Assembly: GCF_039555335.1 (NCBI RefSeq)
Contig: NC_092646.1
Location: forward strand, 36,987,911 to 37,051,910
Source: Amphiura filiformis
Taxonomy: Eukaryota
Length of the DNA stretch: 64,000 nucleotides
Reading direction: 5' to 3'
Positions within the stretch are counted from its first letter, which is position 1. Every line of letters begins with the position of its first letter. Made by a program: the position numbers and the translations under genes. Of this stretch, positions 2,719 to 56,262 are shown in pieces. The notes beneath the pieces were generated by a model, which saw only the letters and a program-made list of their open reading frames with translations, ran no database searches and had not been told where the DNA came from.

Positions 2719-2905
2719 GTCAGAAGACGTGCCTTCACATCCACGGTGTATTCCCGTACATTTACATTCCCTACAATGGCACAGAACCATTGGATAAATA
2801 CACATTGCAGTTTGCAAACAGCTTAGATTTAGCCATCCAGGTATCCTTAGGGAGGGCATCATCAACAACGGAACATGTTTTCAAAGTATCCCTCGTCACT
2901 GGAAT
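2719..2905 (+). CDS. REV3L: REV3L-like exon (partial gene). Encodes GQKTCLHIHGVFPYIYIPYNGTEPLDKYTLQFANSLDLAIQVSLGRASSTTEHVFKVSLVTG-.
   Basis: Acceptor tttcatttctag|GT at 2717-18 and donor GGAAT|gtaagt at 2906. The peptide closely matches the N-terminal region of human REV3L as I recall it (GQKTCLHLHGIFPYLYVPYDG...STAQHVFKVSLVSGM). The exon ends in phase 2 and the next exon completes the ATG codon. Confidence 0.85.
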
Positions 2906-2930
2906 GTAAGTATGAACCATCAAATCAGCC

Positions 2931-3135
2931 TTAACCCCATGAGAACTACCTGCCGATTGGCCAAAAATAAGTTTACATTATCAATTGACCCAATCAGCAA
3001 CATTGTTAGAATAATTTCACCACACAAAAAAATTGAGGTGAATTATTTCAAAGCTCCATTCTGATTGGTGATAAAAAGTGAAAATATCATGTAATTGACC
3101 AATCAGAGGCAATGTTAGATCGGCAGGTAGTTCAG
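2931..3135 (+). mobile_element. TTAA-flanked MITE (piggyBac-like), copy 1, 3'-truncated at the duplication junction.
   Basis: Begins ttaaCCCCATGAGAACTACCTGCCGATTGG. Contains internal ccaatcag/ctgattgg motifs. Ends ...gatcggcaggtag. Family TIR is ~24 bp: TTAACCCCATGAGAACTACCTGCC / GGCAGGTAGTGCTCAAGGGGTTAA. Confidence 0.8.
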
Positions 3136-3236
3136 TTTGCAAACAGCTTAGATTTAGCCATCCAGGTGTCCTTAGGGAGGGCATCATCAACAACGGAACA
3201 TGTTTTCAAAGTATCCCTCGTCACAGGAATGTAAGT
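3136..3236 (+). pseudogene. Pseudo-exon: a duplicated 95-nt 3' portion of the 2719-2905 exon, including an intact gtaagt donor.
   Basis: Near-identical to 2811-2911 (QFANSLDLAIQVSLGRASSTTEHVFKVSLVTGM plus gtaagt). It is preceded by ...gtagttcag|, a potential acceptor. Its length of 95 nt is not a multiple of 3. Confidence 0.8.
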
Positions 3237-3255
3237 TTGAACCATCAAATCAGTC

Positions 3256-3460
3256 TTAACTCAATGTGAACTACCTGCCGATTGTCCAAAAAGAAGTTTT
3301 CATTATCAATTGGCCCAATCAGCAACATTGTTAGAATAATTTCACCAGGCAAAAAAGTTGGGGTGAATTATATGCAAAGATCCATTCTGATTGGTGATTA
3401 AAGTGAAAATATCATGTAATTGACCAATCAGAGGCAATGTTAGATCGGCAGGTAGTGCAG
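3256..3460 (+). mobile_element. Same MITE, copy 2, inside the tandem repeat.
   Basis: cttaactcaatgtgaactacctgccgattg ... gatcggcaggtagtgcag. Confidence 0.75.
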
Positions 3461-3561
3461 TTTGCAAACAGCTTAGATCTAGCCATTGAGGTGTCCTTAG
3501 GGAGGGCATCATCAACAACGGATCATGTTTTCAAAGTACCCCTCGTCACAGGAATGTAAGT
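3461..3561 (+). pseudogene. Second pseudo-exon copy, again with the donor retained.
   Basis: Third unit of the 325-bp tandem repeat, slightly more diverged (gatctag, cattgag, ggatcatg). Confidence 0.8.
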
Positions 3562-3580
3562 ATGAACCATCAAATTTTCC

Positions 3581-3802
3581 TTAACCCATGAGAACTACCT
3601 GCCGATTGGTCAAAAAAAAGGTTTTCATTATCAGTTGGCCCAATCAGCAACATTGTTAGAATAATTTCACCACACAAAAGAATTGGGGTGAATTATTTGC
3701 AAAGCTCCATTCTGATTGGTGATTAAAGTGAAAATATCATGTAATTGACCAATCAGAGGCAATGTTACATGTGTAGATTGGCAGGTAGTGCTCGGGGGGT
3801 AA
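3581..3802 (+). mobile_element. Same MITE, copy 3, with a complete 3' TIR.
   Basis: ttaacccatgagaactacctgcc ... gattggcaggtagtgctcggggggtaa. Confidence 0.8.
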
Positions 3803-6459
3803 GCCAGAAAGCAACATGCTTGAATTAAAGAAAAAATTCTACTGTTTGTATACTTATCATATGAAAAACTAAGCCTGATACTGTATCAGTATCAGTTGGC
3901 CGTTATAATAAAAAAAAAACACTGGAGGTTCACTGTTTTGGATCCTATGAGTAACAATCCATTATGGAGGATTTCCCATCATACACCTGGCTATGCAGAC
4001 TATTTACCCTAATGCCCCAGACAAGCGCACAGACACACTTTGCCACGGGGGTCTAGCTTGGCTGGCCAAGTTTCTGTGACCATGACTGTTTGCATGATGA
4101 TGCAATCGCATCACATGGGATACCTGCATGTGCAGATACTTTGTGAATTGAGCTCTTTTGATACTTGTTACGGTTAGGGTTAAAAAATGCAAAAACAAAG
4201 AAAGGCAAACCTTTTTTATGAAAGCAGTACCATTCGTCTAGCTTTGAGTTTCTTACATAAACCAAGACATCAGACTTGATGAGCACAAAAAGCACAAAAT
4301 CAATGTTACGTGAAAATTGTCATTTCTATAGTACGGTATATACTCTACATATCAAGATATGCCTTGCACTAGGGCTGCACGACACACACCGACACCGCCT
4401 GGCTAATAATTATTTGGTGGAGCAGAGACACTAAAATGAATACACGGGATCGATACACGTGAATTGCTATGCACGATTTTGATATCAAACGAAAATCGTC
4501 CGATACTGGGTTAGAAATTGATGAATATCTCCATAAATGAATTTTTCTCAAGAAACCAGATGTGGTCTCATACACTTGAAAATACGTGTTGAACAGATAT
4601 GATAGTCGCTAGAATGCGCTTTGAAAATTGGCCGTGCGCTTTGAACTCAAAATTTGACCATTTTATATTGCGTTGGTCCTACAGCGTGCAGCGTGTAGTA
4701 CAGCTGCACTCACTGTAGGCAGTATAAAAGTCGATGACCATTGAACTCAATGGGGTATACAAGCTTATTCACGCACAACCAAGATCGATTACCCGGCTAT
4801 TGTGAGTAGCCTTAGTTATGTCCCTCGACTAATTATTAGTTTTAAAGAGCTTTAAAGGTTTGAACCAAATGGCTAATCGTGGCTGTGGATTCAACCTACC
4901 ATGGTGATTCCTGCCATGAAGATATAGGGTCGATGACACTGTGCGGCATAGGCTTTTTTAGTAGTTGACTATTCGCCACCCAAATAGTCGCGGTTACGAC
5001 TATGGCCAACTATCAAAGGTCAAAATGTCCTAAAGTTCAAGCTTACTTTTTTTGTTCAGAATACACTTAAAAACACATTCACTGCATTGGTGTTCCTGTC
5101 GAAATGAGGGTTCTTCATAACCATAACAAATGAATGCAAATGGCGAACGTCACTAGTACGATCAGCACATCGGAACATTTTATTCACAACAATAAGGCTG
5201 TACGTATTTAAGCAAAAGGACAACATGACATTGAATATATACAGGAAGGAGTAATAGGTAAAGTTATAATTAACTTTCACAAAGATTTTCAAGGTGGTAG
5301 CACAAGTTCTTAGACAATTTTTAGCACCTTTAGTACCTGTCTTTACTTCAATTTTGTTGCTTGTAAGTTGTTGAACGTTCAGGAATAGTCGCCAATTGAC
5401 AATTATTAGTCGTAAGTCCCGACTATCGCCAAATAGTCACAACCTTCACTATTGGCGACTTAGTCATTCAGGCCTAGCTTGCACAACATGATGAAAAGCA
5501 CTGAACAAATTTTAAAGGCACTGCAAACTGTATCAAATTAAGTAATTGAAACCGAGGTATGTGACATTTTCTAAAAATATTAAAAATATAAAATCGCTAT
5601 TTAATTTACATTTTTGTGCTACTAATGGAAAGGGGCTTATGTGAACTTCGTAAAAGATAATCTGAAGCCAATAGCTTGTTGGATCTAGGTCTGTAATAGA
5701 CACATAATTTCTAATTCAACACTTCATCAGGGAAAAAAATATGACAATTGACACGTGTCGAAACTCGTAATGAGTTTTAAAAATGCTGAAAAAGTCAATA
5801 GATAAGCTTGAAATAACGCCGATATGAGTTAAGATTCGTTCTACTTCCGGGTTCTGGTCAACTTTGGGAGGTAATTTTCGACTTACCGATGAAAACATGA
5901 TCATACGGTAAGCTTATTTGGACAAAATAGCATTAGAAATTTCATTTTCTTCTCTTTTGATATGTGTCCTAAAGTGTTGAAGAAGGACAATTTATTTTGA
6001 CATGTCGGATTTAGGGTCATATCGACGATAATACGACAGTCGATAACAGGCATAGTTGGATCTGGGAGCAAGGCATTAGTCAGACGGGTGGCTTTAGGGT
6101 GTCCAAAATGGTCAAAAATACCTTATTTTTCAAAATCAGGGTGTCCACTTCCTATTCACTCCATTATAAAAATCAAAATTTTAGGGTATCCAAATTTAAA
6201 AACAGGGCGTCCAAATGACACCTGGACACCACTCTGGCTAATGCCTTGTCTGGGAGCTATTGCCAGCAGCCATTCCAATGAAGATCAACTTATTTATAGT
6301 TTATAAGTTGAATAGCCTCACTGCTCAAAATATTTATTGCATCATGCATGTGCTCTCAATCGATATCTCACTTCCTCTAAAAGCGTGTTCACATCTAAAT
6401 AGAATGTGCTATCTTCATGTAAATACTTAGGAATATTACTAGATACTAACGAAGGTATA

Positions 6460-6850
6460 AAAAGAGTAAGATTTAAAGCCTTAATGTATGATTTCCGTTG
6501 AATTTTAATTTTGTTATTCTTTATTCAAAATGTTGAAATAATATTAGTAATAACTTAGGAAGGGTTGATGTCCATTTAAAGTTGAAATAACAAGGTAAAG
6601 TGAAAGAAACCCCACTGGTTATTTTGGCTATTTAACATGCAGTTCTATGGGCGGACATATTATCATAATTTTTAAATTATGATAATATGTCGAACTTTGC
6701 TCTGTTTACCTACAAAGACAACACATTTGGCCGATTCCATTTAGGTGCAAGTTGGGACATGTGTAAACATTACAAATATGCAAAACAATCAGGTTTGAAA
6801 AAAATAAACCAATTTCATATTATAAGATCGTACATTATGGCTTTAATCTT
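6460..6850 (+). mobile_element. SINE/MITE-like dispersed repeat, family X, copy 1.
   Basis: ~80-85% identical to 27860-28350 and, in reverse, to 57940-58300. Shared blocks include gtgaaagaaacc(a/c)cactgg, ccatttaggtg(c/t)aagttgggacat and gtaaacattacaaatatgc. Confidence 0.7.
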
Positions 6851-7346
6851 TCCCTAGAGAAGTCCTTTTCAAAAAGGACTTTCTCTAGGGAAAGATTAAA
6901 TCTTACTCATGTTTACTGACCTAGAGTACCAAGTAATTTCAACTCGAAGATATAAAAAGATTGTCTAGCAATAGCATCATATAATCACCTCAAACAATTT
7001 CTGCAATGCAAAAGAGCAAACATTACAACAAAAATGAGAATTTTTTAATGCTTATGTACATTTTTTTGTAGGGTCCATTTTTCTTCACAACAGTGAATTA
7101 TGGACACTGACAACAAAGTTAGAACACAGAGTACCTAGATGTTTTTCAAAGAACTCTTCTTAGAACAATATCCATCACAAAATTAGACAAAATGGCAAAT
7201 GCTGATCTATATACAAACACAAATACTGAACCATGGAGCAAAACCATCAAAAGAAGACGACTAAACTGGGTACTGGGTAGGTCATCTATACAGACTCCCA
7301 GACGAATCTCCAACAGTCAAGCCCTAATTGGCAAATAGGCTTACAT

Positions 7347-7962
7347 TTTAAAGGGGTACTACACCCCTGGCCAATTTTGTGCCTATTTTTGCAATTTTCT
7401 CATTGATGACAAGTAAGATATGTATATTATAGGGGCAAGGATTACAACTACTGCACTGGAAATTTTATTTCAGCACAGACAACACTTGTGGAGTTACAGT
7501 CAAAAATGAGGGAAAACCACTATTTGATCAATAAATCAATAACTACTTGTCTTGAGTTGCTGAATTTTCAGTGCAGTAGTTATATCTTAAGCGCTTCAGA
7601 CTCCGAGTATTATGCGTACAATATTGTATGTACAATATATGCGTTATTTAATCTATTGCCATTCTATTTCCAGTAATGTTTAAGTTCTAACGAATGTTTG
7701 ATGACGAAAAATCGATAATATGTTACATACAATATCTAGCAGAAATATATTATCGATTTTACGTCATCAAACATTCGTTAGAACTTAAACAGTACTGGAA
7801 ATAGAATGACAATAGATTAAATAACGTACATATTGTACATACAATATTGTACGTACAATAAAAAGTCTGTATACTGCTTTACTTGTCACCAATGCGCTAT
7901 AATTTTTGAGAAAAATGCAAAAATAGGCACAAAATTGGCCAGGGGTGTAGTACCCCCCTTAA
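7347..7962. mobile_element. TTAA-flanked foldback element of ~615 bp.
   Basis: ttaaaggggtactacacccctggccaattttgtgcctatttttgca at 7347-7392 and its reverse complement at 7917-7962 (...cccccttaa). The inner palindrome is 7640-7870. A terminal fragment ggtgtagtacccccttaa also occurs at 54433-54455. Confidence 0.8.
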
Positions 7963-8124
7963 ATCGGGATATATAATAATCACAGAATCAGCTATAAGTT
8001 AATGTCACCATAATAAAATGTTAACTCCACAGATCTCCAATCATATTAACTAACTACTGAGCTCTACTGGTTGATACAAATGATACTTTTACATAATAAT
8101 ATAATTAGAATACATTGTATCAGT

Positions 8125-8480
8125 ACCGTATTTCGTCAAATAAACGCCCCTGGGGGTGTTACATTTTCCCAAGGGGGGGGGGGGCGTTTATTCAAGGTCA
8201 ATTATAGAGCGATAATTCCCGTTAAAATCATTAGGTAAAGTAAAAACACACGATAAAATGACGAACTATGAACTAGAAACACTGACTTCTGGCTCACTTC
8301 CGAGTTTCTGATCCAGATTTTCGCCAATTATTGACACTATTATCGACCATGTGCGCAACTTGGTAAGTTTACTACACAAGATAGCATGGAAATATCGGCA
8401 TTTTTGAAACATCTTGGTTGAAAAAAGTGGTGGGGGCATTTATTTGAGGGGGGGGGGGCAACTATTTGACGAAATACGGT
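8125..8480. mobile_element. MITE of ~355 bp.
   Basis: TIR accgtatttcgtcaaata...gcccc at 8125-8150 and its reverse complement at 8455-8480. The subterminal G/C homopolymers are mirrored. Confidence 0.7.
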
Positions 8481-9469
8481 ATGTGTGGGAGTAAGAGATG
8501 GGTCTCACTCTGATTGTCCCAAAAGGTTATGGTATGTGAGTAGGAACAACAGCTACCTGTCTATGTATGACATGGCCTAGAAGAAAGTGTGATGGTCATT
8601 GGTACAGGGTTATGCGGGGTTATGCATTTTTTTGATGATTCTGAGACATCACTCATGTCTTGAAATCAGACAATAGTACATGGCAATGTTCAATTAATGT
8701 AATGTTAATTACGGATGCACTGCAGTGGAGAACTTAATACATATGTATAAACAGCTTTTAACAATTTTTTTATAATAAAACATTGTCTTCAGAGAAAGTC
8801 ATACACCTACATATAATTTAGTATAATGACTCTTGTGATAGTATGTTAGCACACCCATTCTTTTCCCCAGTCTCTCGACAACAATGCATAAATCTGATTT
8901 AACGAATCACTGGTGGAGCCTGCAATTGCATTCTATTGATGAGCTCATTACAAATGGCATTAACCCATCTATAAATACTATTATAATGGAAGGTATTGTT
9001 TGGTTTGAGCTCTAAAAGGTTTGGCATTTTAGAGCAAGAACAAAATGCTGGGGAAGTCATCTGCTTGGGGAATATTTATTTACTCCATTCAGAGAATGGT
9101 GCTGGAATTTAAATTAATAGTCATATTGTACAAAATGTACCGTCTTAGATATGAAATTGGTTAATTTTGTTCAAACCTGATTTTTTTGGGCATATTTGCA
9201 ATTAATTTTTACATATGTCCGAAACGACACCTAAATGGACTGAAGGTATACAGAGCAATGATTAAGACATCAAATTCCCAATAAAACTCCACTTTGATGA
9301 GGCAAATTAGCCAATGTGTGCGGTTTCTTAAAAATACCTTTTTATTTTTGCATACATTTGACCTGATTTGACAGAAACATTTTCTGACAGTTATATATAA
9401 ACTATTATTTCAGCATTTTGAGTGTAGAATGACAAAATTAAAATTTGATGGAAATTTTACATTGCTATA

Positions 9470-9640
9470 ATGATCAACTCTAAGTTGTGGCACCAGGATT
9501 TATTTTTTTTTGGGGGGGCAAAGTGAATTTCTGGGGCGGGGTAAAATCAACAAATTTTGCCCAAAATTGCCGCAAAAAGCGGAAATTTACATAATTTGGG
9601 GGGTTTTGCCTCGAAACAGGGGGGAGGGGGCAAGAAGAAT
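9470..9640 (+). repeat. Dispersed repeat. A second copy lies at 16290-16450 in reverse orientation.
   Basis: ggcaccaggatttttttgggggggcaaagtgaatttc...ttgccgcaaaaagcggaaat matches the reverse complement of 16300-16445. Confidence 0.65.
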
Positions 9641-9789
9641 ATCCACGTAATGACTGCATATAATAAATGTCTTTGAGGTTCAGACCAGGAATTCAGACAG
9701 TGCATGTAGTCTTCAATTTGGAGATCATTGTGCACTGCATAATAATAACTTTCAGTCACACCAATTTTCAAAAAAATATTTTAAATCTA

Positions 9790-10060
9790 GATGATTTGTG
9801 TGGAGGTGTGTGTGTTCTTTCCCCTCAAAGAGGCTAAAAAACCAATCACTAAAAGCTTGACAAATTAAAAAAAATATATCTGACATTGCAAATATATTTT
9901 GAAAATTTTAATTTTTCCCCCTCAAAGAGGCTAAATGTTTTTGAAAAAATTAATCACCAAAAGCTTGCAAAATTGGAAAAAAATCTGACATTTATTGTAC
10001 AAACATATTTTGAAAATTTTTCCCCCTAAACATTTCAGTCAAAATTGATCTACTTTGGCC
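9790..10060. repeat. Tandem repeat, ~110-bp unit x ~2.5.
   Basis: ttttgaaaatttt..ccccctcaaagaggctaaa..aatcaccaaaagcttg(a/c)caaattgg(a)aaaaaa..tctgacatt recurs at ~9830, ~9900 and ~10010. Confidence 0.7.
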
Positions 10061-10502
10061 AAAAAACGGCTGATTTTAATTTCACACAGCTAAATAAATT
10101 CCCCATAATGTAAAATTGGGGTCAGTCGGGCCCGTCGAATAGAGTTTTTTCCATCACCAAATGCAAAAATACACACAGTAACCTTTGGATTTTCTCTGCA
10201 TTTTGCATCTGCAACTCTCTTCATTTCATTTTGCCCATTTCTCCATTGTGAGTGTTTTTGTTGCGTGCCGGTTTCCAAGATACAGAAAAATAATCAAATC
10301 AGTCTGAGCTATATGAAAATGCCTTGTTGATTGAATGTTGATTGAGTTGTGACACGCAACTTGCTATTCAAATTGTAAGCAAGCTATATCATACAACTAT
10401 ACAAGACAATGAAAGGTCTTGTGGATCTAGCGGACTTGCTGCTCTTGTTTATCCAGTACTGTCAAAATGGGAATTTTTTGGGAACACTAATTTTCATGCT
10501 AA

Positions 10503-10660
10503 AGGGATCAGATAGCAACATTTGCACAGTATTTTTTGTGGGGCTGAGAGCACATCAAATTGCATTCTGAATACGAGGAATGTCCTTCTTATATCAAATA
10601 ATTTTGATTTTTTTTTTTTAATTTGTGATATTTTGTGACATTTTATGGTATTGCTCTTAT
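10503..10660. mobile_element. Truncated (left-arm-only) copy of the long-palindrome FB family.
   Basis: cagtattttttgtgggg.tgagagcacatcaaattgcattctgaatacgaggaatgtcc..atatcaaataattttgatttttt matches the left arms at 29010, 45143 and 51104. Confidence 0.65.
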
Positions 10661-11231
10661 ATGTTTTATGGCCACTTTTGATCGATCATTGGAAAAGGGA
10701 TGTGTAGTCAATGAATTAGCCATCTTCTGATTTTTGGTGATTTCTTCCCAGGATTTCTTTACTACTAAATTCAGTGAAATAACCCAAATTACAGCTATTT
10801 TGGGTGCTCCAATTGGACATCTTCTGATTTTGGGTGATTTCTTTTACATCAATTTTAGGTGCCTTTTAACTGTTGTCGCCACTTCGCGAGAATCTGTGAA
10901 TGAAAATATTAATTTGCAGCTTCGCGCGAAGGCATTCATGTATACTTCCATCAAAATATCGCCGAGTATGGCAAAGAATTGTTGCCCGCACTGTGCTTTC
11001 TTATAGAACTTCTCTGGCCTACACCCCAAGTTGAACCAAATACAACTCTCCGCAAAGCGAAGAAACCTGGTCCGCGAAGTTATAAAATTTCAGCTAAAAT
11101 TTCTTCACAGCCTGCAAAATTGCAGCCTCGAAGTGGAGTATACATCAGACTTTACAGCTATTTTGGGTGAATTATTTACTTCTATGTACTACAAATTACC
11201 CAACTATATTTTGGGTGCCTTTGATTGGTAA

Positions 11232-11447
11232 GGAACAAGCCAAAAGATCGATGACGTCCTATAAACGTAACTAGTTTAGTTTCTCAGCCGACCCCCTCCC
11301 TCCCTGCCAGAAACATAATAAAGAAATGTTGAAAATTATTCTTCAGACCGATGTTTTTGTACAAACGTAATCAAGTATTTTTACCCCCTCCCCCCTAAAT
11401 GAAACTAGTTTCGTTTATAGGACGTCATCGATCTTTTGGTTTGTTCC
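11232..11447. mobile_element. MITE with ~38-bp TIRs.
   Basis: ggaacaagccaaaagatcgatgacgtcctataaacg and its reverse complement (11232-11270 / 11405-11447). The same TIR (ggacgtcatcgatcttttggtttgttccctaa) recurs at 52426-52458. Confidence 0.7.
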
Positions 11448-11760
11448 CTAATTGGGCTACTTTCTCATCACCCACCACCCACTCTTTTGATGATGTGATG
11501 CTTGGCTGTATCTTTACATACACGACTGTAGACACAAAGTCATGGCAACCCTTTTATTATGTACTTCTGTACTACAAGTTCAATGAAATTACCCAACTAC
11601 ATTTTGTGTGCCTTTGATTGGTAATTGGGTGCATTTTTATGGTAATTGGGCTACTTTCTCCTCACCCACCACTCCCTTGATGATGTGATGCTTGCTGTAT
11701 CTCATAGACTACAAACGCAAAGTCATGGCAACCCTTTTTATTATCAATACAGTACCTTTC
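11448..11760. repeat. Tandem duplication, ~185-bp unit x2.
   Basis: taattgggctactttctc.tcacccaccac.c..cttttgatgatgtgatgcttg..gtatct....aca..c.caaagtcatggcaacccttttt occurs at 11448 and 11640. Confidence 0.75.
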
Positions 11761-12430
11761 CTTGTCTGCTTCATTCAGTGTAAACCTCTTTGTTGATTGA
11801 GCATCGATCACAACCACTTTAGGCTTTGAAGTACATGTAGCGTGTTAATACTGAGATATTTTATTCACTTTTTACATCACATGGATGGGGATATTATTAG
11901 TTTGCATGTCACTCATTATTAGCATTTGGCTGTGGTGTACAAATGTACATGGCATGTAATACAAACAATACTAGCATAACATTTTGAATTTTATCTTGAA
12001 ATTTTGAATTTTATCTTAAAATTGTGAATTTAACCATAAAATTATAGATTTTATCTTAAAATTATGAATGTTACCTTAGATTATGGGGGAGCCCCTAAGG
12101 TACTTGGGTCCTGACCAAAATTATTATTGCACCCCTCCCCTCCCCCATTTTGACATTATCACATTGACACTCCTTTTTTTTTCACCAAAAGACCAAATGC
12201 AAAGCATTTTTGGGCTTTGGACCCTAATCTGCTACATGTACATGTTAAATATTTTTTTTTTTCAGCTCAAACATTTTTTTTTTAAATCAGGGTTTTCTCA
12301 ATCCTGAAAAATGATGGCAGCCCTAGGCATACAGGTTCGCAATAAAGAGTTAGAATTATGAACAGAAAATGTATGGTCATGTAAATCATACTTGAAAGTA
12401 TACAGTATCAAAATGAATAATGATGCATGC

Positions 12431-12797
12431 CCTTAAGGTGGTTTTGGAGGCATTTTCTAGAAATTAGGAAATACTTTGAGCATGTTTTAAACAGATTATT
12501 TGCGTAGGGTAAAGTACATTGATCAATATGCCTTTTGTTTGAAGTAAATCGGACATATTTTCTTTGTATCTCATTGTTTTTATCAATAATCAATATAGTT
12601 AATGAGCTAAAAGGAGTGTACATATAAAGGTTCATTTAAAATATGTAATTTTTGCCAATATTTTGCTAATGTATAAATGTTCACGGTACTTTTATTTTGC
12701 ATACTTTTGCCCTGAAGTCTTTACCCTGCTCAATTAATAGCTGTTTAAAACATGCTCAAAGCATTTTCTAATTTCTAGAAAATGCCTCCACCTTAAG
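12431..12797. mobile_element. MITE of ~365 bp with ~55-bp TIRs beginning cTTAAgg.
   Basis: cttaaggtggttttggaggcattttctagaaattaggaaatactttgagcatgttttaaacag at 12431-12493, and its reverse complement at 12735-12797. Confidence 0.8.
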
Positions 12798-15700: not shown

Positions 15701-15944
15701 CCCAATTCATGTATGCAGTTTTATTGGCCGGGCCAGCGAAAGACCTGTGCCTACCGGTCAATGATCTAGTGCTTAGTACCCAAAGGATCTAAGGTTTGAA
15801 TCCCGGGGTGCCAAATAACTTCTTTGTTCATCTTCTCTCCTTTTTTGTTCCTTCCTTCCTTTCCGATAGCCAAAAACTACTTTTAGCGTTTGTTTTAAAA
15901 TTGTTACATTATCATTTTATGCTTTTGTTTTTCTGTTCTTGCAG

Positions 15945-16019
15945 GCCACTATATGGGTATCATTCCAAAGAGCAGCAGTTTCTCAAAATATACTTCTACA
16001 ACCCACTTATGGTCAAAAG
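15945..16019 (+). CDS. REV3L: REV3L-like exon: (M)PLYGYHSKEQQFLKIYFYNPLMVK(R)
   Basis: Acceptor ttcttgcag| and donor AAAAG|gtaagt. Matches human PFYGYHEKERHFMKIYLYNPTMVKR. Phase is consistent with the flanking exons. Confidence 0.88.
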
Positions 16020-16479
16020 GTAAGTTTTTGCATATGGTATCCACATCTAGACTCAAAAGAGACTGAGAATTCTGGCATATTAATTATAGGTTAAGGAGGA
16101 TTTCGTGATCCTAGCACCCTCTTTATAAGACATTTTTCACGAAAAAAGCTTAATCTCAAAATTTCAGTTGAATCCGATTTTGCGTTTGTGAGTTATGCAT
16201 GATTATGTGTATCACACTGCTCCATAGGCCACTGTTGTAATTTCGTTCTGGTATACCAGAACAAAATTCAAAATTTGACGATATTTATGAAAATCCCCTC
16301 CAGTCCGAGCTCTTGCCCCCCCCCCCCCAGTAAAAACCCAAAATTGCAAAAATTGCTGCCAAAAGTGGAAATTGATTTTGTCCACCCTTGAAATTCACTT
16401 TTCCCCCTCAATGCCCCCCTCCCAAAAAAATCCTGGTGCCGCCACTGATAATGCATGCAAAGATTTCATTGAAATTATA

Positions 16480-17130
16480 TTAGACTTGATGTGGAAACCT
16501 TTCCAAAGGGGAAAAAGTTTCAGTTTTGGTTTCTAGCAAGTTACATTGTGATTGTGTTATGAACTAATCAAAGGTCACAAACACTATGGACCACAACGGC
16601 CTCATCCTAATGGTATAGTTCAATAACCTCAATTAAACAATCATAGTGCAAAATTTGACCTCAAGTTACAGAGTATGAGTTTTTGTACTCAAATTTTCAA
16701 AGGTCATTCAATGAATGTACAAATGTATTGGGGTTAAAGAACTGTGCCCTGATAGATGACCATGATGTGGATCCTAGTGAGACTTGATGTGGAAACCTTT
16801 CCAAAGGGGAAAAAGTTTCAGTTTTGGTTTCTAGCAAGTTGTTTTTTTGATTGTGTAACTTATGAACTACTAGTAATCAAAGGTCACAAACACCATCTAT
16901 GATTGATCATGGAAGTATACACTAGGATCCATCGCATGCTCATCTATCAGGGGCACAGTTCTTTAACACCAATACATTTGTACATTCATTGAATGACCTT
17001 TGAAAAATTGGGTATAAAAACTCATACTCTGCAACTTGAGGTCAAATTTTGCAATATTAGTGTTTAATTGAGCTAGGTTATTGAACTACTGTATGCCATT
17101 GGGATGAGGCTATTGTGGTCCATAGTGATA
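16480..17130. repeat. Nested direct-plus-inverted repeat complex.
   Basis: The ~60-bp segment agacttgatgtggaaacctttccaaaggggaaaaagtttcagttttggtttctagcaagtt occurs directly at 16484 and 16783. 16600-16750 is the reverse complement of ~16960-17110. Confidence 0.7.
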
Positions 17131-18599
17131 AAGTTTTGATGGATTGATTTCTGTTGGTTTCTAAATACGATTTGGCCTTGAAACTACAACAAAGCATGTG
17201 CGATCTTTGACCTAGTTTGTTTGTCAACTTATTCGTAACTTGCAGGTATGAGAATTTTTAGGTTTAAACCTGAATTTAGGCACTGTTTTTTTGCCAAAAT
17301 GTATGCATTTTTAGGTTGTCTGAAAGAAAAGACCACTATTATACCATTTGTGCACTTGTTGCAGTCTAAACGGGTACCTTCAAAATAACAATGCACAAAT
17401 ATTTTAAAGGTCAATTTAAAGATCCTGGAATGGCAAATGTAAAAATAAGGGAAATATTTCAAAATATGCAGGCAACCATCGATAAAAATAAATGTAGGAA
17501 GATTCGCGAGACCTTTCGCTATTGTACTATCATGGTTATAATCAATCAGCGATTGAGCTAGGCTGGTTATGAACCACCGTTATTGTGACTTCTGACCAGA
17601 ATGATGTCATTTTTACCCACAATGCATTGCGGCCGTGATCAGAAACAAAGAAAAACAATTCACTTCCAGTAATTTTATAACGCCAGTATTTCTTATGGCA
17701 AAGCTTGGCTGATTGTGAAAATGACATTGCCATTCTCGGAAACCTTTCCAAATCATTTCCACTAGTTTAAAAGTCCTGCAGACCCCCGGAAGTATTTCTA
17801 ATTATGATCAGAAACAATACATTAATTCACCGTAACTTTGGAAGGAAATATGAGGGAATTTGATCAGGTTTTCGCTAATAATAATCAACTCGGACTCGGA
17901 AACACAGTAACACTATCAAAGAACATGTGACCGATACAAATGGGCAGTATTGGGCGCAACAGTCTCTTATACATCCCTTTCCGGTGCGGGTCACTCAGGG
18001 TAACCTTGGTGTCCATTTGTGTGACAATGTCAGTGAATCAATGATCGATGAGCTGTAGCGGAGTTCACATAACCATGCTAAGGCAGTGTTGGAGTGACCG
18101 TTCTCATAAAATCCATGAAGTGATGACTCGCGTTAAATAGCGTAAATGGCTTATCCCTCTCGAGTGGATTAGGACTTTTTTGTTGGCTATCCTTCTATAA
18201 TCTTGATGATTAAACATATCTGAACCTGTGCGATGGTGCATGGGCAGACACACACAATTCTTCACATGTGGGTGGAAATACATCAATAATGCTGTTGTTG
18301 TTGAAGTTATAATAATAGTTGTATGGTTCATAATTTTTCATATATAGAACACATTAAACATGCATGGATATGCACTGTAAGTGTGTACAGACAAAATCTT
18401 ACACTTGTGTGGGAAATATGGTATTTTTAGTACATGTACAAGTGTCAAGGTCGGGGGCACTTAAATTTAGTGCCAAAAATATGAGTAAGAAAGGACGTTT
18501 TTCATTGGCAAGCAATATATTTGCGTATCGTTAAGGTGTCAAAAAAACAACTTACGTATGTTTGACCACAGGGTCTATGGTTTGACAAGACCTCAAACA

Positions 18600-18828
18600 G
18601 GGCTCGAAATAAGGAGGCCCCCAAAAATCAGCGAGGGCCCACAAAAGACACAACTGGCGGGCCCAAATGGCCTGCAAAATTTGTGGCAATTTGCTCACTC
18701 TTTTGTGAGGTTCATAGGTTAAAACCAATGGCCCAAAGTCGGGCCCACAAAAATTATTGTGGGCCCTCAAACATTTAAGATAAATGGCCCTCAGAAATTC
18801 TGGCTTATTTCGAGGCCTGCCTCAAACA
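18600..18828. mobile_element. Short TIR element with a 9-bp target-site duplication CCTCAAACA.
   Basis: cctcaaaca|gggctcgaaataagg ... gcttatttcgaggcctg|cctcaaaca. Interior gggcccacaa repeats. A 9-bp TSD suggests Mutator-like origin (inference). Confidence 0.6.
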
Positions 18829-18892
18829 TGAAACATAAAAAGTACATCATTTATTTAAGGTTTCAAAAATGTCAAAAATCATGAAAAAAATG

Positions 18893-19095
18893 TCAAGGGA
18901 CATGAACATGAAACATAAAAAATGGCATAATATTGACCATTTTTCGCTGTTGTATAAACTTGTAGGGAGTAAACTCAAAAATGTCAAAAATCAGAAGAAA
19001 ATGTAAATTTGAAGGGACATGAACATGAAACATAAAAAATGGCATTATATTGACCATTTTCCGCTGTTGTAACTTGTAGGGAGTAAACTTGAACA
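18893..19095. repeat. Tandem duplication, ~120-bp unit x2.
   Basis: gggacatgaacatgaaacataaaaaatggcat(a/t)atattgaccattttt..gctgttgta...cttgtagggagtaaact. The supplied ORF 18893..19243 (-) is an artefact of this repeat. Confidence 0.8.
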
Positions 19096-19789
19096 AAACA
19101 TGTGTTAAAGGTAGGCCTATAATGGTAGACCTGTAAAAATACTTGTTTAGAGTCGGTTTTGAAAGTACGGTACCATAAAAGTGGAAAATTTTGCGCTCAA
19201 TTTTTTGATCTAAAATTTTTGTCATCCAAAAATGGAGACCCAAAATTTTCCAAATGTCTGGTCAGTCGGGTAAGGGCAACACAAAAATTTTGTTTGGGCC
19301 TAAAATTGTAACAGTCATCTGTATTGCTTGTAAAGTACATGTAGCACATTAAACATACATGAATGTGTGCGACAGTGCACATGCCGACAGAAGGGGTGTG
19401 TGTGCATATGTGTGAAATTGATTGCTAAATTAATGTGAATTTCCATGCAAGAGATCATTGATGATTCAATGAAGCTCTCTAATTTTGCATTGTTGGTAGT
19501 CGATTGTATCGGTATTTTGTCCATTGTGCAGAGTATATAAATATTGTACTGTAGATGCAGGTGATAAAATTAATTGTTTTCTTTGCCAATTTGAAGGAAA
19601 AAAATTTCATTTTTCATAGTATTTCATTCCAGAATATTTTTAAATTTTGTTAAATTTTAAGTGCTGTGATCTAATCCTATGTATGGTATTACAAACCGGG
19701 CTATTATGAGTCTCAGAGCCATGAATCTGTATTATTTCATTTCAGCATTTTTTACTTAATGTTGTAAATATTTGTTTGTTTGTTTTTAG

Positions 19790-19871
19790 AGCGGTTGATT
19801 TACTACAAACTGGGGCTGTTATGAATAACGTCTTTCAACCATATGAAGCACACGTTCCTTTCATCCTACAG
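19790..19871 (+). CDS. REV3L: REV3L-like exon: (R)AVDLLQTGAVMNNVFQPYEAHVPFILQ
   Basis: Acceptor tgtttttag| and donor CAG|gtgagt. Matches human ICELLQSGAIMNKFYQPHEAHIPYLLQ. Confidence 0.85.
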
Positions 19872-19890
19872 GTGAGTAGCTATTACACTT

Positions 19891-20150
19891 AAAATCCACA
19901 CTCCCCCTTTGGAAGATTTTGGAAATATCTACCACAGGGGGAGTATGAATTTCAAATGGAATGAACATTTTAGGCAATTCCATTTGAATTTCATACACCC
20001 TCTAAGAAAGAGTCAACCTGTATCTTTCACAGAGGGAGGGTGAATTTCAAATAGATCTACTAATGTGTTCATTCCATTTGAAATTCATACTCCCCCTGTG
20101 GAAGATATTTCCAAAATCTTCCACAAGTGGAGTGTGGATTTTAAGTGGAA
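19891..20150. repeat. Hairpin-repeat family H, 3 units.
   Basis: Each unit has the form attccatttgaaattcatactccccctgtggaagat - loop (atttccaaa) - atcttccacagggg.agtgtg.atttcaaatggaat, giving a ~35-bp perfect stem. The locus starts 20 bp after the donor of exon 19790-19871. Confidence 0.85.
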
Positions 20151-20670
20151 AAGCATGTCTTCCCAAATTCCTTTGAAAGTTTTAAGAACAAAAAGGGTGA
20201 CATGCTTGAACCTTCAAAGACCCTTGTTGATTCAACTTTGCAAAAGATTCAGAAATAAAAAACCCTCCCAAATATCTTATTTGGAGTACACCGCTTGTGT
20301 GGGAGTTTTATAAAGTCACATCTTCCATTGGACATGCTTCACTAGCCTCACCTGAACCAGGGACTGTCTTTTGGAATTTGAAGGAGAGCATTAAATAGCT
20401 CTTCTGGAGCCTTCAAGGAGAGCTGTTTCGAGCATTTACAATAGAATGTAAGGGGAGAATGGTCAACTAAGGAGAGCTAAAAATCACTCACCTATGTCAG
20501 ATTTAAGGAGAGCAGTAGAGTAATGATTGCTATCGCTCTCCTCAAAAGGCAGTACCTGCTGAACACAGTCAATTCAGTTGTACAATTTTCCAAGAGACAT
20601 ACTCATATTCAACAAAATCTACTTATCATCATGATCATTGAGCACAATAAATTATAAACATGTTCAACAG

Positions 20671-20950
20671 GCTATTCCATTTCAAATTCACACTACCCCT
20701 GTGGGAGATTTAGTTTAAGTCTGCTACAGAGGGAGTATCAATTTTGAATAGAATAGGCAGTTCACAGTTGGGTAACTTCCATTTGAAATACTCACTCCAG
20801 TTGTGGAAGATATAAGTAAAACCATCATATGGGGGAGTAAGCATTTCAAAATAATTAACTCTGACCAATTACTTTTGTAAAACATACTCCCTCTGTGGAA
20901 GATATTTCCAAAATCTTTCACAGGGGTAGTATGGATGTCATATGGCATAG
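20671..20950. repeat. Family H, 3 units.
   Basis: Same ccctgtggaagat / atcttccacaggg core. Confidence 0.8.
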
Positions 20951-22039
20951 TGTATTGGACAGGCAGGTGCTGGGAAAATAGATGGACTTCCAGGTATTCA
21001 CTCAGCACTTTACAGAACTAATTTTAGCCAGAAACCTTTTGAAAAAATATTATTTTCAACACGACTGCTTGGATGTAAAACCAGCCACTAAAAGCAAAAT
21101 TGATAAAGACTAGTAACTTGTGATGCTATTTGGAATGGTGTTATCTGTGGCAAAATAAAATGAAATCCTCACAAAAAGAAAGTCCCCCACTTCCAGCAAA
21201 ATGTGTTAAATTATATATTAATTTGAGCCAAACTGAACCATTTTGAAAAAAAAAAAGGAATTCAAATTGTCTATGTATTATACATAGACCATTTTGAAAA
21301 AAAAAAAAATCAAATTGTCTATGTATTTTATATTTCTACATAGCTCAATCCTAATCGTTTATTTAGTACTAACTGGAGATAACAGAAAAAGTTCACTATT
21401 CGACTTAATTTCTTGAAAAAAGAGTCAAAAACATGCATTTTCAGCATGTTTTCTGACAACCGAGTTACAAATATCAAAGGCTTGGGACACTTTTTTGTGT
21501 TACTTTAATTAAATGATTGGTTATAAGAATGGAAGATGTCTTTTCCAAAAATTAGTGCCAAGTTTTTAGTTGTTGGACCAATTGAAGTACTACATTTCTG
21601 TAGAGTTCAACACAGTCTCAGACCTGCCAACTGTCCGCATTTTGCGGGACAGTCCCGCAAGATTCGAAGTTTAAAACCCGAAAATGCGGGCGCCCCGCAT
21701 TCCGCATTTCCGTCCATTGAAAAAAATCATTAAAAAAACCAACAAATTGTCCGATATCGTCTGGCACGAAAGAATTGCGGCGGCGCTATACCTATTTAAA
21801 TGCATTGAAAATGTGGTGGCGCTATTAAAAGCCTGATTAGCACGTGCTTGCGTGTTAAATTCACGTTGCCCATTGTAAATACATTGGATATGTATGAGCG
21901 TTGCCATTAAAAGGAGGCTATTATTTTAGCCTCATCGCTTGGTGCATGGTTCATTGATGCAACATTGTATAACCGATGAATTGCGTATCTTTTTCGGATT
22001 GGTGAAGAGGTTATTTTCAGCTTTTCACTGTGTCAATGT

Positions 22040-22130
22040 TTCCGAATTCGGAAGGTTCGTCGTAATTTCGTTGGAATTTTGGAAGAATTTCGTTGGAATT
22101 TTGGAAGAATTTCGTTGGAATTTAATTCAG
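22040..22130. repeat. 22-bp microsatellite-like tandem repeat x ~3.5.
   Basis: (gaatttcgttggaattttggaa)n. Confidence 0.85.
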
Positions 22131-22444
22131 AATGGCTACCAAAGCAAGCAATAAGAGAGGTTGCAGTTATACGAAAGACTATTCTGTGCAATTTCCGTGC
22201 ATGAATACCATTTCGTAACATGTTTACAAGTGCCAAAACCCATCAGCTTCCCCTGGACCCCCACCAGGGGCCCTAAGGCGGGCTCCTGGACCCCAACCGT
22301 TCGCCGTGCGTGCTTCGCACGCGCACATTGTCACTAAATTTTTAGTGTCCCGCATTTGGACTTTCAGGGGTTGGCAGGTCTGCAGTCTGTTTGTTTCTGA
22401 TCACCATTTTTTAAACATTCATATTGTATTGCTTTCCTCCACAG

Positions 22445-22529
22445 TTTTTAATGGACTACAATTTGTATGGCATGAACATGCTCAATGTAGCTGCTGTCAA
22501 GTTCAGGAAAACAGAAGAAGATAAACAAG
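22445..22529 (+). CDS. REV3L: REV3L-like exon: FLMDYNLYGMNMLNVAAVKFRKTEEDKQ
   Basis: Acceptor ttcctccacag| and donor CAAG|gtatat. Matches human LFIDYNLYGMNLINLAAVKFRKARRKSN. Ends in phase 1. Confidence 0.85.
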
Positions 22530-22537
22530 GTATATAA

Positions 22538-22755
22538 TTAACCCCATGAGAACTACCTGCTGATTGGTCAAAAAGAAGTTTTCATTATCAATTGGACCAA
22601 TCAGCAGCAACATTGTTAAAATAATTTCACCACACAAAATAATTGGGGTGAATTATTTTCAAAGCTCCATTCTGATTGGTGATTAAAATGAAGATATCAT
22701 GTTATTGACCAATCAGAGGCAATGTTAGATCGGCAGGTAGTGCACAGGGTGTTAA
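22538..22755 (+). mobile_element. Same MITE family, full length, flanked by TTAA on both sides.
   Basis: ttaaccccatgagaactacctgctgattgg ... gatcggcaggtagtgcacagggtgttaa. It starts 9 bp after the donor of exon 22445-22529. Confidence 0.85.
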
Positions 22756-24662
22756 ACACAGATTTATCTGGTTTGTAGATATTTAATTATAATTTGGAAT
22801 TTTCATCTTTCAAAACCAAAATATTGACACTGACCACAGTTTTGTACGTCTTGGACGACACACTTCTTCAGAGTAATTATTGGTATCCCATCCTCAATGC
22901 TGGTGGTAACAGCTCCATCCTGAGAGTGCATGGGTTTTGAGGGTGCAGCACCAAAGGGGCTCCAAAAATATAATCTACTTATTCCACAGGAATATTTGTA
23001 TTATAAAAGGAATTTCAATATTTTGTAGCTTCCAAATTCTCTTTCAGATATGTAAATTTTAATATTTTTGTGTGTGTGGAAGTTAAATGTTTATGATAAG
23101 AGTAATAGTAACTAGGAAAAAGCAATAGACCTTTTCATACTAAGTAATCCCGATAAAACCCGAAGCATGAAATAATTTCCTCAATCGCGCGCGCATAAAC
23201 GTACCTCTTCAGCATCATGTACAGTGCAAAGGTCCAATGTGTAACAGGCATCATAAACTACGACGAACTTTCGACGGTCAATCTATGGAAGAGGGAGGTA
23301 CTTTTGCCAAGGATACTCAACGTGCAATCAAGCGTGTGGGGGTAGTGTTGTGTAAGAGACTGACTGTGGAAGAGGTGATACACATAAGCAAAACGTTCTG
23401 TAAAAAAATTAACTGACGAAAATGACGGAGATTTGTCCATTTCTTTCCATTAGTATCTTATTGTGAAAAACCAAGTACCTGAGGTGTTAGCTCAATATGC
23501 TAGGAAAATATATCTATATTTCCCCATGTTCACATTGGCTTAATAAGCTGTATTTTCGCACAAAAGGGTGTCGTAATTCATGACATTTCTTGTCCGCCAG
23601 TTTGGGTACAATTTGACCCCCTAGCTTACTGAATAAATAGCGCGGTTTTCCGAACTTTTCCGATCTTGATTTGAAAAGTCTTTGGCATATTGGCTAAATA
23701 ATAATGAGCATATGATTGGAATTTCATTTTTAACCACAAATAGCTGCATTAAAACATGGAGAAAATAATATTAATGAAAAGAAGTGAATGAGAATGGACT
23801 GGACATAAAAGTAATTAAACCAAACATATTCTACTAAAACCAATTACATAAATTGACATTTTATACCAATAAATAGCAGTGGCAATGAAGCGTATATCTT
23901 TTCTGGTGTTTTTCTGTTGAACATCATTCACAGCATATTATAAAAATTAGAATTGCATAATGAAATTCATGCTGAATTGTTTTAAACAATTCAGCTTAAA
24001 AGCCATATGTAATGTACATCTGTTTAAAAATAAAATTGTTTTAAACCTGATGTTTTGGCATATTTGAAATGTTTACACATGTCCGCACTTTACACGTAAT
24101 TGAAATATACCAAATTCATTGGGTTTGTAGTACGCAGGTCATTAACATCATCATGATTTTGTGGAGCTTACATACTTTTTGATTCCTTGTCCATTCTCAT
24201 TGTGTAATATGTTTGTTTAGAACTGTGCCCATTGGAATGATTTTAAAATTGCGACCTGATTGACAAGTGTCACCAAACCATCAGTCGAAAGTGTGACAGT
24301 ATAAAAATTAGGGAATTAAAAGAGGATATATCATAGCTACCAGGGATCGTTATTTTGCTGAGCGATGCTCGCATTTATGCAATGAAATACAAGCTTATAA
24401 TCTTGGTGAAATATGCATGTAATTTGGTCTAGGTAATTTTTCCAAGTTGTAAGTGTTAATTTATGTATAAAAATACCCTCTAAATGTGCCCAAAACCAGG
24501 AGCTTCGACTAGAATCCCCTGCACCCCCACCAGGGTCCCCGGCCTTTGTATGGATTGTCTCCGAGTAGCTTCCAGATTTTTTAGAAATCCTCAATCACAC
24601 CCCTGTGTAAATAACCATAAAGCAATTCAAAGTCTCAATTTTTTTTCCATGTCCACATGTAG

Positions 24663-24798
24663 AATCATCAGAACCCCTGTCAGGAAGTAGCAAGCATTCT
24701 GGGAGTAGTGATGATACATTGAACCAATCCACCCAAGGCAGTGGGTCATCGAGGTCAAGCGTAAACAGGCATGTGTGGACCAAAGACACCATACCCAG
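24663..24798 (+). CDS. REV3L: REV3L-like exon: ESSEPLSGSSKHSGSSDDTLNQSTQGSGSSRSSVNRHVWTKDTIP-
   Basis: Acceptor ccacatgtag| and donor CCCAG|gtaaga. Phase 1 in and phase 2 out are consistent. Weak similarity to human ...LFRWEQDEIPS. Confidence 0.7.
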
Positions 24799-24830
24799 GT
24801 AAGAGCTTCAACCTCTTTACTGTAACGGGA

Positions 24831-25235
24831 CTATTCCAGTTGAAATCCTGACACCCATAGGAAGACATGACCTTAATCTCCCACACAGGGGGTGTAGATT
24901 GAAATTCACACAAGCTGTATGGGAGATTAAAGGCATTTCTTGCATAGGGGTTGTATTGATTTCAAGTGGAATCTCTTTGAAGGAACTAAAGTAAATTCTA
25001 AAAACTTGGTCAGTGATGTAATGAAACACTTGCCCGATGGCCCCAATGGCTCACCACCCAGTTCAAATCCATACACCCTCTAAGGAATACAAGACCTTAA
25101 TATTCCAAGTAGGGGAGTGTAGATTTCAAACGGAGTCACCCATTCTGGTAACCCAATTTGAAATTCACACTCCCTCTGTGGAAGATAAAAGCCATGTCTT
25201 CCATAGGGGGTGTAAAGATTTCAACTGGAATAGCA
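24831..25235. repeat. Family H, ~5 units, of the atgaccttaat-loop subtype.
   Basis: Starts 33 bp after the donor of exon 24663-24798. The ORFs 25037..25420 (+) and 24817..25029 (-) are artefacts. Confidence 0.8.
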
Positions 25236-26076: not shown

Positions 26077-26257
26077 GCTATTCCAGTTGGAATCCATACA
26101 CCCCCTATTGAAGACATGACCTTAATCCGCCACATAGGGAGTGTGAATTTTAGATAGGGTTACCTGAATGGGTGACTCCATTTGAAATCTACACCCCCTG
26201 TGTTGGAGATTACAGTCATGTCTTCCATAGGGGGCGTGTGGGTTTCAACTGGAATAG
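26077..26257. repeat. Family H, 2 units forming a larger palindrome.
   Basis: gctattccagttggaatcc ... ggtttcaactggaatagtc. Confidence 0.8.
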
Positions 26258-26339
26258 TCCATATATCTTATGAGGCAATCATTTTTGCAGGCTTCCACAT
26301 CCTGAAATTAACTGTTAAAGGTCTTTAAAATAAATAAAT

Positions 26340-56224: not shown

Positions 56225-56262
56225 GTGTAATGGATGCCTTGGAGTCACTACACATGTCACAG

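Follow-up and report, generated by a model that had tools for sequence, protein, structure and literature searches.

Why should short non-autonomous DNA transposons lie within a few nucleotides of splice donors in the brittle star Amphiura filiformis, and do so again and again in one gene? The window analysed here, a 64-kb stretch of contig NC_092646.1, carries on its + strand the 5′ half of REV3L (DNA polymerase zeta catalytic subunit), amounting to 12 exons and 11 donors. A first-pass annotation of this DNA had placed elements directly downstream of four donors in a row. All four pairs of element and donor exist, with two of the elements closer to their donors than it had given, but they are not consecutive, because the donor of exon B (16020) falls between those of exons A and C and has no element within 70 nt. 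We found a fifth case that the annotation had missed, in intron J, so that an element begins at +8 to +29 in five of the 11 introns (A, C, D, E and J), while the other six donors (B, F, G, H, I and X) have no close element.

The gene product is 100% identical to RefSeq protein P0040 of A. filiformis and 56% identical to REV3L of Lytechinus, with nearest homologues reaching at most 56%; these homologues contain PF24065/PF24055 (REV3_N/POL3_N; best match 1.5e-101). Exons were located by tblastn with the REV3L N-terminus combined with a stop-free joined coding sequence, which stays open as far as exon X, where it meets one apparent frame break (56228). Homology of the N-terminal exons and exon boundaries matching those of Lytechinus identify the gene as REV3L. 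Exon A (2719-2905, +; protein …GQKTCLHIHGVFPYIYIPY…SLVTGM), supported by tblastn, the joined coding sequence and the Lytechinus boundaries, ends at the donor AAT/GTAAGT with its GT at 2906-2907. Exons B (15945-16019, +; protein PLYGYHSKEQQFLKIYFYNPLMVKR; donor GT at 16020), C (19790-19871, +; donor CAG/GTGAGT at 19872) and D (22445-22529, +; weak donor AAG/GTATAT at 22530) are supported by tblastn and the joined coding sequence, exon E (24663-24798, +; donor CAG/GTAAGA at 24799) by the joined coding sequence, and exon J (57565-57677, +; donor CAG/GTAGGG at 57678) agrees with RefSeq protein P0040. A weak tblastn match at 2328-2372 was rejected as an upstream REV3L exon.

Three unrelated kinds of element occupy the five donor-proximal sites (piggyBac-type, hairpin and a further element with terminal inverted repeats), and comparison of the five insertion sites revealed no common motif. 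In intron A, a piggyBac-type MITE (copy A; 2931-3131, +) lies where it had been annotated, with TTAA at 2931-2934 and a body from 2935 (CCCCATGAGAACTACCTGCCGAT…) corresponding to +26; its 3′ end is truncated at a tandem-duplication junction. Intron C holds a hairpin MITE of type 1 (19879-20155, unstranded), which starts at +8 rather than at 19891 as previously annotated, and whose 95-nt outer arms (19879-19973 and 20060-20154, 92% complementary) are accompanied by nested hairpins of ~38 nt. As RNA, this element folds at −175 kcal/mol (z = −24). The weak donor of exon D is followed by a complete piggyBac-type MITE (copy D; 22538-22755, +), whose target TTAA lies at +9, as first described, and which is laid out as TTAA (22538-22541), a CCCC…GGGTG body (22542-22751) and TTAA (22752-22755). 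Intron E carries a hairpin MITE of type 2 (24827-25236, unstranded) from +29. Its start is 24827 by the family terminus GGGACTATTCC and 24831, the position given earlier, by the inverted-repeat arm, with an end at ~25236; terminal inverted repeats at 24831-24856 and 25208-25233 are 92% complementary, and an unrelated insert of ~85 bp interrupts the element at 24974-25057. The intron J element, of the third kind (57706-57885, unstranded), measures 180 bp, starts at +29 and has perfect 27-nt terminal inverted repeats (TTTTGATCCAAACACAAGGAATTAATT). Intron F offers a possible further case (35126-35251, +), in which TTAA followed by CCCCATGGAC…GTCCATGGGG begins at +43 from the donor at 35084 and abuts a second inverted-repeat element (35222-35476). 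Downstream of exon B the nearest detectable repeat is at +71; intron B also has an 18-nt inverted repeat at +17, which is no more than chance would produce and does not enter the count.

The piggyBac-type MITE is ~210 bp long, has no ORF and occurs at three loci (five copies) in the window at 86-91% identity, copies A and D being 91% identical to each other and each 86-87% identical to the distal copy L3 (50824-51037, +), which lies 621 nt downstream of the exon-H donor. Its termini (CCCCATGAGAACTACCTGCCGAT … ATCGGCAGGTAGTGCACAGGGTG) form CCC…/…GGG inverted repeats, and TTAA is duplicated on both sides at 22538/22752 and at 50824/51034, the latter as had been claimed; at 2931 the 5′ TTAA is intact, and the 3′ site, after the third tandem copy, has degenerated to GTAA. 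Flanking TTAA, CCCC…GGGG/GGGTG termini, the lack of an ORF and the presence of several copies are shared with MITEs of the piggyBac superfamily, from which this case differs in that the brittle-star family is unnamed and the exon-A copy was later caught in a tandem triplication. A search for a transposase ORF in the 64-kb window found none, and no autonomous partner was seen there; a partial match to the MITE is present in metagenome contig L007. The triplication (2807-3790, +; TRF period 325, 3.0 copies, 92% matches, with the units aligned) repeats a 325-bp unit made of the last ~99 nt of exon A, its donor, 25 nt of intron and the MITE, leaving two extra copies of pseudo-exon, donor and MITE inside intron A, with pseudo-exon matches by tblastn at 3133-3231 and 3458-3556 and duplicated donors at 3231 and 3556. 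At its junction the 3′ repeat of the MITE and the exon share 2-3 nt of microhomology (tGC). The sequence 5′ of the MITE at 50824 does resemble the exon-D donor context, and the first-pass annotation rightly took this for coincidence: the flank caaggtgtttgaat is supplied by copy 2 (50720-50823, +; by alignment) of another repeat, ‘Z’ (copy 1 at about 50285-50440), whose second copy reads caaagggcatttgaat. A paralogous or transduced flank was therefore rejected.

The hairpin family is represented by ~10 loci in the 64 kb, with copies also in other contigs. Seven further loci, all unstranded, lie far from donors (20668-20950, 26063-26260, 28670-28852, 30716-30986, 37779-38280, 38422-38705 and 42175-42399), and a fragment at 58455-58511 falls outside the 20668-42399 span. 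Among nine hairpin copies the intron C element is the best-preserved palindrome, with arms at ~91-92% compared with 63-78% elsewhere. Long near-perfect inverted arms, nested hairpins and an absence of coding capacity align the family with foldback or hairpin MITEs; we left its superfamily unplaced, as a search for a target-site duplication beside the recovered termini (GGGCTATTCC…GGAATAGCCC) gave agreeing flanks (AAT) in only two of nine copies. Rfam and tRNA searches of the hairpins returned no matches, and a reading as structured RNA genes was rejected on that ground.

Whether five donors are too many depends strongly on the null against which they are set. Under uniform placement of all self-similar intervals, five donors were matched where 0.485 would be expected (P = 6.7e-5), and for the two families alone (13 loci) four donors were matched against 0.098 expected, a result equalled in none of 200,000 permutations. 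A neutral simulation of intron growth, in which once-short ancient introns are inflated by insertions, predicted that 1.1-4.2 donors would have an element by +35; the probability of five or more was 0.003-0.42 if every insertion was detectable and 0-0.04 if half were. Donor clustering is thus strong relative to uniform placement and only borderline relative to neutral growth. At the acceptors no repeat comes nearer than −60, and a repeat end lies between −41 and −100 in four of 12 cases, compared with 0.78 expected (P = 0.0046). This pile-up at −60 to −100 is the mirror image of the donor side, suggesting a property of intron ends generally rather than of donors. The annotation's proposed preference for donor-proximal, AT-rich TTAA sites does not survive: the 55.8 kb of intron contain 496 TTAA sites, or ~1 per 112 bp, and TTAA availability was rejected as the cause on that ground. 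Only one of the three families uses TTAA.

These introns are older than the elements in them. REV3L intron positions are common to Lytechinus, Branchiostoma, Nerophis and Actinostola, that of intron E being common to pipefish and sea anemone, and exons that fit into 5.9 kb in Lytechinus are spread over >55 kb in A. filiformis. Introner elements, as treated by Huff, Zilberman and Roy in 2016, are reportedly transposons that create introns. The REV3L elements are likewise short non-autonomous DNA elements directly beside splice sites; unlike introners, they fill only a small part of each intron without providing its splice sites, and the antiquity of the intron positions led us to reject an introner reading. 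The A. filiformis genome consists of 59.3% repeats (PMC11310086). In human and mouse introns every transposon class is depleted in the 50-100 bp next to exons, donors included, and those mammalian transposons that do come within 20 bp of an exon mostly lie beside its donor, the acceptor being protected over a longer stretch (PMC3088655). As in these mammalian underrepresentation zones (Zhang, Romanish & Mager 2011, PMC3088655), splice-signal footprints shape element positions in the window, where acceptors are clear to 60 nt; unlike in mammals, protection on the donor side is almost nil, with elements at +8 to +29 of 5/11 donors.

Further DNA was available from five ENA metagenome contigs (ERZ25070167; 90 kb in total) of the same or a close species, reached with a profile built on spurious peptide translations of the hairpin family (A2), which retrieved 23 ORFs. 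They carry the same element families and a single recognisable gene, too small a sample for a tally. Of their 12 element loci, 11 have no donor-like site nearby and one is near a real donor; donor-like hexamers beside the 12 loci number one, against 0.8 expected. In the recognisable, RIN-like gene (contig L008) no element starts within +35 of any of the five donors, and one donor is followed by a hairpin element at +40.

Three other accounts of the pattern may be weighed against simple tolerance. Tentatively, the elements might have a genuine integration preference for exon flanks, with insertions into acceptor signals then purged by selection. Such a preference could perhaps arise through linker DNA left by an exon-positioned nucleosome or through local hopping within a transcribed gene, routes that we offer with equal reserve, and, were it real, which we think somewhat unlikely, would leave a hot spot immediately downstream of donors, with a weaker counterpart at −60 to −100. 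The strong excess over uniform placement favours it, and under the growth model with partial detection that excess still stands at the 1-4% level. Three unrelated families fit a property of the site better than one transposase; donor-proximal copies are no older than distal ones, the enriched zone lies on both sides of exons, the RIN-like gene supplies a donor with a hairpin element at +40, and the clustering of the hairpin family at 19.8-42.4 kb suggests local hopping. Against this, the case rests on one window, chosen post hoc; all five RIN-like donors are free of elements as far as +35, the external hexamers show no excess and the five sites share no target motif. Nor do insertion distances, by arithmetic from the exon lengths, follow the nucleosome-edge prediction of (147 minus exon length)/2, which was rejected. 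A broader statement, that exon flanks genuinely collect short derivatives of DNA transposons from several families, channelled there either at integration or by selection, strikes us as doubtful, and the same doubt attaches to its supposed targets, the first ~30 nt past 5′ splice sites and the 60-100 nt upstream of 3′ splice sites.

Deletion bias in introns provides the general reasoning for a preferential-retention account, in which insertion is uniform and copies beside exons escape the large deletions by which the interior of an intron is worn down, since large deletions there would remove the exon. The two-sided pile-up and the unusually good preservation of copy C would fit; one-sided shielding, however, yields about two-fold at most where 5- to 10-fold over uniform is observed, and it predicts old proximal copies when those present look young, making this account improbable. 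Least plausible to us, and with a very small chance of being right, is recruitment, whereby stable hairpins or G/C-runs just past the 5′ splice site would help or regulate the donors of very long introns. Positions of +8 to +29 would suit such a role, the extremely stable intron C hairpin (−175 kcal/mol, z = −24) is the best kept of its family, and a MITE at +9 accompanies the weakest donor (exon D, GTATAT). Yet the elements at the five sites are related neither in sequence nor in fold, donors of perfect consensus (C, and A for the six intron positions, GTAAGT) carry elements when the weak donor I has none, six of 11 donors are without close elements, and the elements match no Rfam family. The mirror pattern at acceptors, moreover, needs no donor function. 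The recruitment suggested in the first-pass annotation thus found no positive evidence, with unrelated families, six bare donors and acceptors that repeat the pattern, whereas the tolerance it offered in the same breath fits elements at +8 to +29 in five introns of a conserved gene whose exons are open until exon X.

We therefore favour tolerated insertion: the elements are probably, on balance, ordinary non-functional insertions of short non-autonomous DNA transposons into ancient REV3L introns, and they look like residents tolerated where the splice-signal footprint ends, and not like a novel splicing device. Repeats would have inflated the introns roughly ten-fold, with insertions tolerated everywhere except in the splice-signal footprints, which may take in positions ~+1 to +6 on the donor side and, on the acceptor side, ~60 nt that would cover the branch point and polypyrimidine tract. 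Elements adjacent to exons would stay pinned, as later insertions would spread the intron interior and could not dilute its ends; element edges would in consequence accumulate at the limit of tolerance, +8 to +29 and −60 to −100. The anatomy of the elements, the antiquity of the introns and the pile-up on both exon sides are matters of observation; to produce the pattern, we infer, neither integration bias nor function is needed. Old inflated introns, the absence of a common targeting signal, the two-sided pattern, a neutral model that comes close, the external sample and the donor-side precedent in mammals all support tolerated insertion, which is weakened by the large excess over uniform placement and by the growth probability of ~0-0.04 with half detection. 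Pinning also leads one to expect old donor-proximal copies, which are not seen in copy C, element J or copies A and D: the terminal repeats of the intron J element are perfect and the intron C arms are the best kept of their family. Likewise, the pipefish REV3L ortholog is equally repeat-laden (77% self-similar), yet every repeat in it is at least 58 nt from donors, indicating that growth alone does not force proximity.

If the elements are tolerated junk, they show how far the requirements of a 5′ splice site reach, with insertions accepted from +8, and illustrate how repeat insertion inflates ancient introns, from 5.9 kb in the sea urchin to >55 kb here. If channelling were true, the situation would be the opposite of the vertebrate depletion and would imply that transposition is targeted through exon-linked chromatin or in a manner coupled to splicing. 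Should the enrichment prove real genome-wide, it would contrast with the depletion of mammalian exon flanks and would provide a handle on how DNA transposons integrate in transcribed genes.

Exon A (2719-2905) encodes the N-terminal sequence GQKTCLHIHGVFPYIYIPY…SLVTGM of REV3L (DNA polymerase zeta), and protein search recovered REV3L N-terminal fragments, the best from Lytechinus variegatus (56% identity; Pfam REV3_N/POL3_N). Our gene model, based on homology, splice signals and the Amphiura filiformis RefSeq protein P0040, which is 100% identical to the large 3'-end exon of the window, continues on the forward strand with exons B (15945-16019), C (19790-19871), D (22445-22529), E (24663-24798), F (34986-35083), G (40368-40472), H (50118-50202), I (52517-52665), X (56058-56375), J (57565-57677) and K (59964 to the window end), and therefore places 11 donors in the window. 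When joined, the exons are open throughout, save for a single frame break within exon X (56218-56232), where the upstream frame stops at TAA 56228-56230 (after …DEEDNEEV) and the downstream frame opens at an overlapping ATG at 56230, the start of P0040, itself annotated as an 'uncharacterized protein'. The cause is an assembly indel or else a true frameshift that divides REV3L. In L. variegatus, the N-terminal 338 aa are annotated as a gene separate from the 2909-aa remainder. The large coding exon also carries an in-frame tandem repeat of 180 bp (60 aa) in three copies (62990-63523, 90% matches).

The first-pass annotation had described four donors 'in a row' with elements close downstream, and all four pairs are present. 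The MITE of intron A starts with a TTAA at 2931 (+26, counting the donor G as +1), that of intron D is a complete copy between TTAAs at 22538 (+9) and 22752, and the hairpin element after exon E starts at 24827-24831 (+29 to +33). The hairpin element after exon C, originally placed at 19891, begins nearer to its donor, at 19879 (+8). These donors are not consecutive, however, because exon B and its donor (16020) come between A and C, with no detectable repeat before +71. A fifth case had gone unlisted: a 180-bp element in intron J, starting at +29, with perfect 27-nt terminal inverted repeats. The original observation was therefore largely correct, if incomplete and overstated. In intron F, a TTAA|CCCCATGG… element starts at +43.

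The MITEs are of piggyBac type, with a TTAA duplication, CCCC…GGGG termini, a length of ~210 bp and no ORF; the three loci in the window share 86-91% identity and an identical orientation. The foldback family has termini GGGCTATTCC…GGAATAGCCC and nested ~38-nt hairpins (the intron C copy folds at -175 kcal/mol, z = -24), and a search for a target duplication in this family established none. Nearly all of its ~10 loci lie at 19.8-42.4 kb; full loci are all inside 22.5 kb (19879-42399) of the 64-kb window, with none in the first 19.8 kb, including the 13-kb intron A, a concentration that suggests local hopping or a regional burst. The intron J element is of a third kind, unrelated to either family, and Rfam and tRNA models gave no match to the elements. 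On the reverse strand of intron G, an ORF (46140-46448) with a match to helix-turn-helix domain DUF4817 (E = 1.5e-7) may represent the N-terminus of a decayed transposase. The 5' flank of the MITE at 50824, caaggtgtttgaat, is part of another repeat, whose second copy ~400 bp upstream reads caaagggcatttgaat; its likeness to the exon D context caaggtatataa is therefore due to chance, as first supposed.

At exon A, a 325-bp unit comprising the final ~99 nt of the exon, the donor, 25 nt of intron and the MITE occurs in three tandem copies (2807-3790; TRF, 92% matches), joined at 2-3 nt of microhomology between the MITE 3' repeat and the exon. Two of the copies are consequently pseudo-exons inside intron A, each with an intact ORF and the same GTAAGT donor; copy 2 has synonymous changes only and copy 3 three amino-acid changes. 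MITE insertion preceded duplication, and the site was therefore scored as one insertion event. A second example of such partial exon-plus-donor duplication occurs in a RIN-like gene on contig L008 (ENA ERZ25070167, ~7600-7860), where an exon 3' end and GTAAGT donor recur, diverged, ~150 nt downstream.

With uniform placement in introns, the two families, with 13 independent loci, hit four donors against 0.098 expected (0/200,000 permutations), and among all 68 self-similar intervals, defined within the window and blind to exons, interval starts fell within 35 nt of five donors against 0.485 expected (P = 6.7e-5). That null is ill suited to introns that grew by insertion. In Lytechinus these exons cover 5.9 kb, here >55 kb, and REV3L intron positions are common to amphioxus, pipefish and sea anemone; old, once-short introns were therefore inflated, which rules out introners. 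(Lytechinus lacks the intron splitting '…IPR|SQW…', intron E here, which is present in pipefish and sea anemone; in amphioxus, the gene model seems to run straight across one.) Where introns grow in this way, their terminal window is never diluted. Simulated growth from 300-1000 bp by inserts of 200-500 bp gave 1.1-4.2 donors followed by an element no farther than +35, with P(>=5) of 0.003-0.42 when all inserts can be detected and 0-0.04 when half can. The latter is about right, since the window is 27% self-similar against 59% repeats genome-wide (1.57 Gb, 36.7% G+C, 59.3% repeats; PMC11310086). Under a realistic neutral model the donor-side excess, a pattern picked post hoc, is thus borderline.

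With the window and a further 90 kb of sequence as the repeat library, no repeat ended within 60 nt of any of the 12 acceptors, and four of the 12 had a repeat end at -41 to -100 (0.78 expected, P = 0.0046). Element edges thus accumulate where the splice-signal footprint ends, on the donor and the acceptor side alike, as predicted by tolerance plus pinning, in which exon-adjacent insertions stay put while later ones enlarge the intron interior, and also by a general exon-flank integration bias. Other features near acceptors include a tandemly duplicated 29-bp unit with a polypyrimidine stretch (40304-40361), ending 6 nt upstream of the exon G acceptor; a 3.5-kb satellite-like array (31371-34900; periods ~59, 80 and 160 bp) that largely fills intron E and ends 85 nt before exon F; and a common G+C-rich motif, CCCCTGGACCCCCACCAGGGGCCC, ~120-200 nt upstream of the exon D and E acceptors (22248-22295 and 24516-24546), probably another repeat family.

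Pinning predicts old donor-proximal copies, and those here are not obviously old. The intron C hairpin (19879-20155) is the best kept of nine copies (arm identity 91% vs 63-78% elsewhere), and the perfect terminal repeats of the intron J element run counter to old age. MITE copies A and D are 91% identical, and each is 86-87% identical to the distal copy. The predicted fold of the intron C hairpin, 7 nt from the donor, extends weakly into GUGAGU. Introns of the pipefish ortholog are just as bloated (77% self-similar), but none of that gene's seven donors has a repeat within 58 nt; that donors here have next to no protected zone is therefore particular to this locus or species.

A profile of peptides spuriously encoded by the hairpin family (IPFEIHTPPVED…FHRGSV.FKWN) retrieved 23 ORFs, most on ENA contigs. 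The five contigs fetched (L005-L009; 90 kb, 34-38% G+C) all belong to one metagenome assembly, ERZ25070167, and contain the hairpin family and part of the TTAA MITE; they presumably derive from the same animal or a close relative. The assembly holds eukaryotic contigs of up to 120 kb at low coverage (2.7-5x); their RIN-like gene and the same brittle-star repeat families mark them as DNA of a host or animal, not of microbes. Only one of 12 element loci on these contigs adjoins a real donor, that of RIN-like exon r5 (11945, element from +40). The gene's other four identified donors have nothing within +35, and donor-like hexamers beside elements on these contigs show no excess (1 vs 0.8 expected). 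Pooling the window with the RIN-like gene, elements start no later than +35 at five of 16 donors, and the outside sample is compatible both with a general bias and with its absence.

On the best-supported reading, the donor-side elements are tolerated, functionless insertions, lying as close as splice signals allow in ancient, repeat-inflated introns; in mammals, the few elements very near exons tend to lie on the donor side (PMC3088655). No positive evidence favours recruitment as splicing elements, and the two-sided pile-up is contrary to what a donor-specific splicing function predicts. A genuine bias of integration or retention at exon flanks is possible, if rather unlikely, and would, if true, be the interesting outcome.
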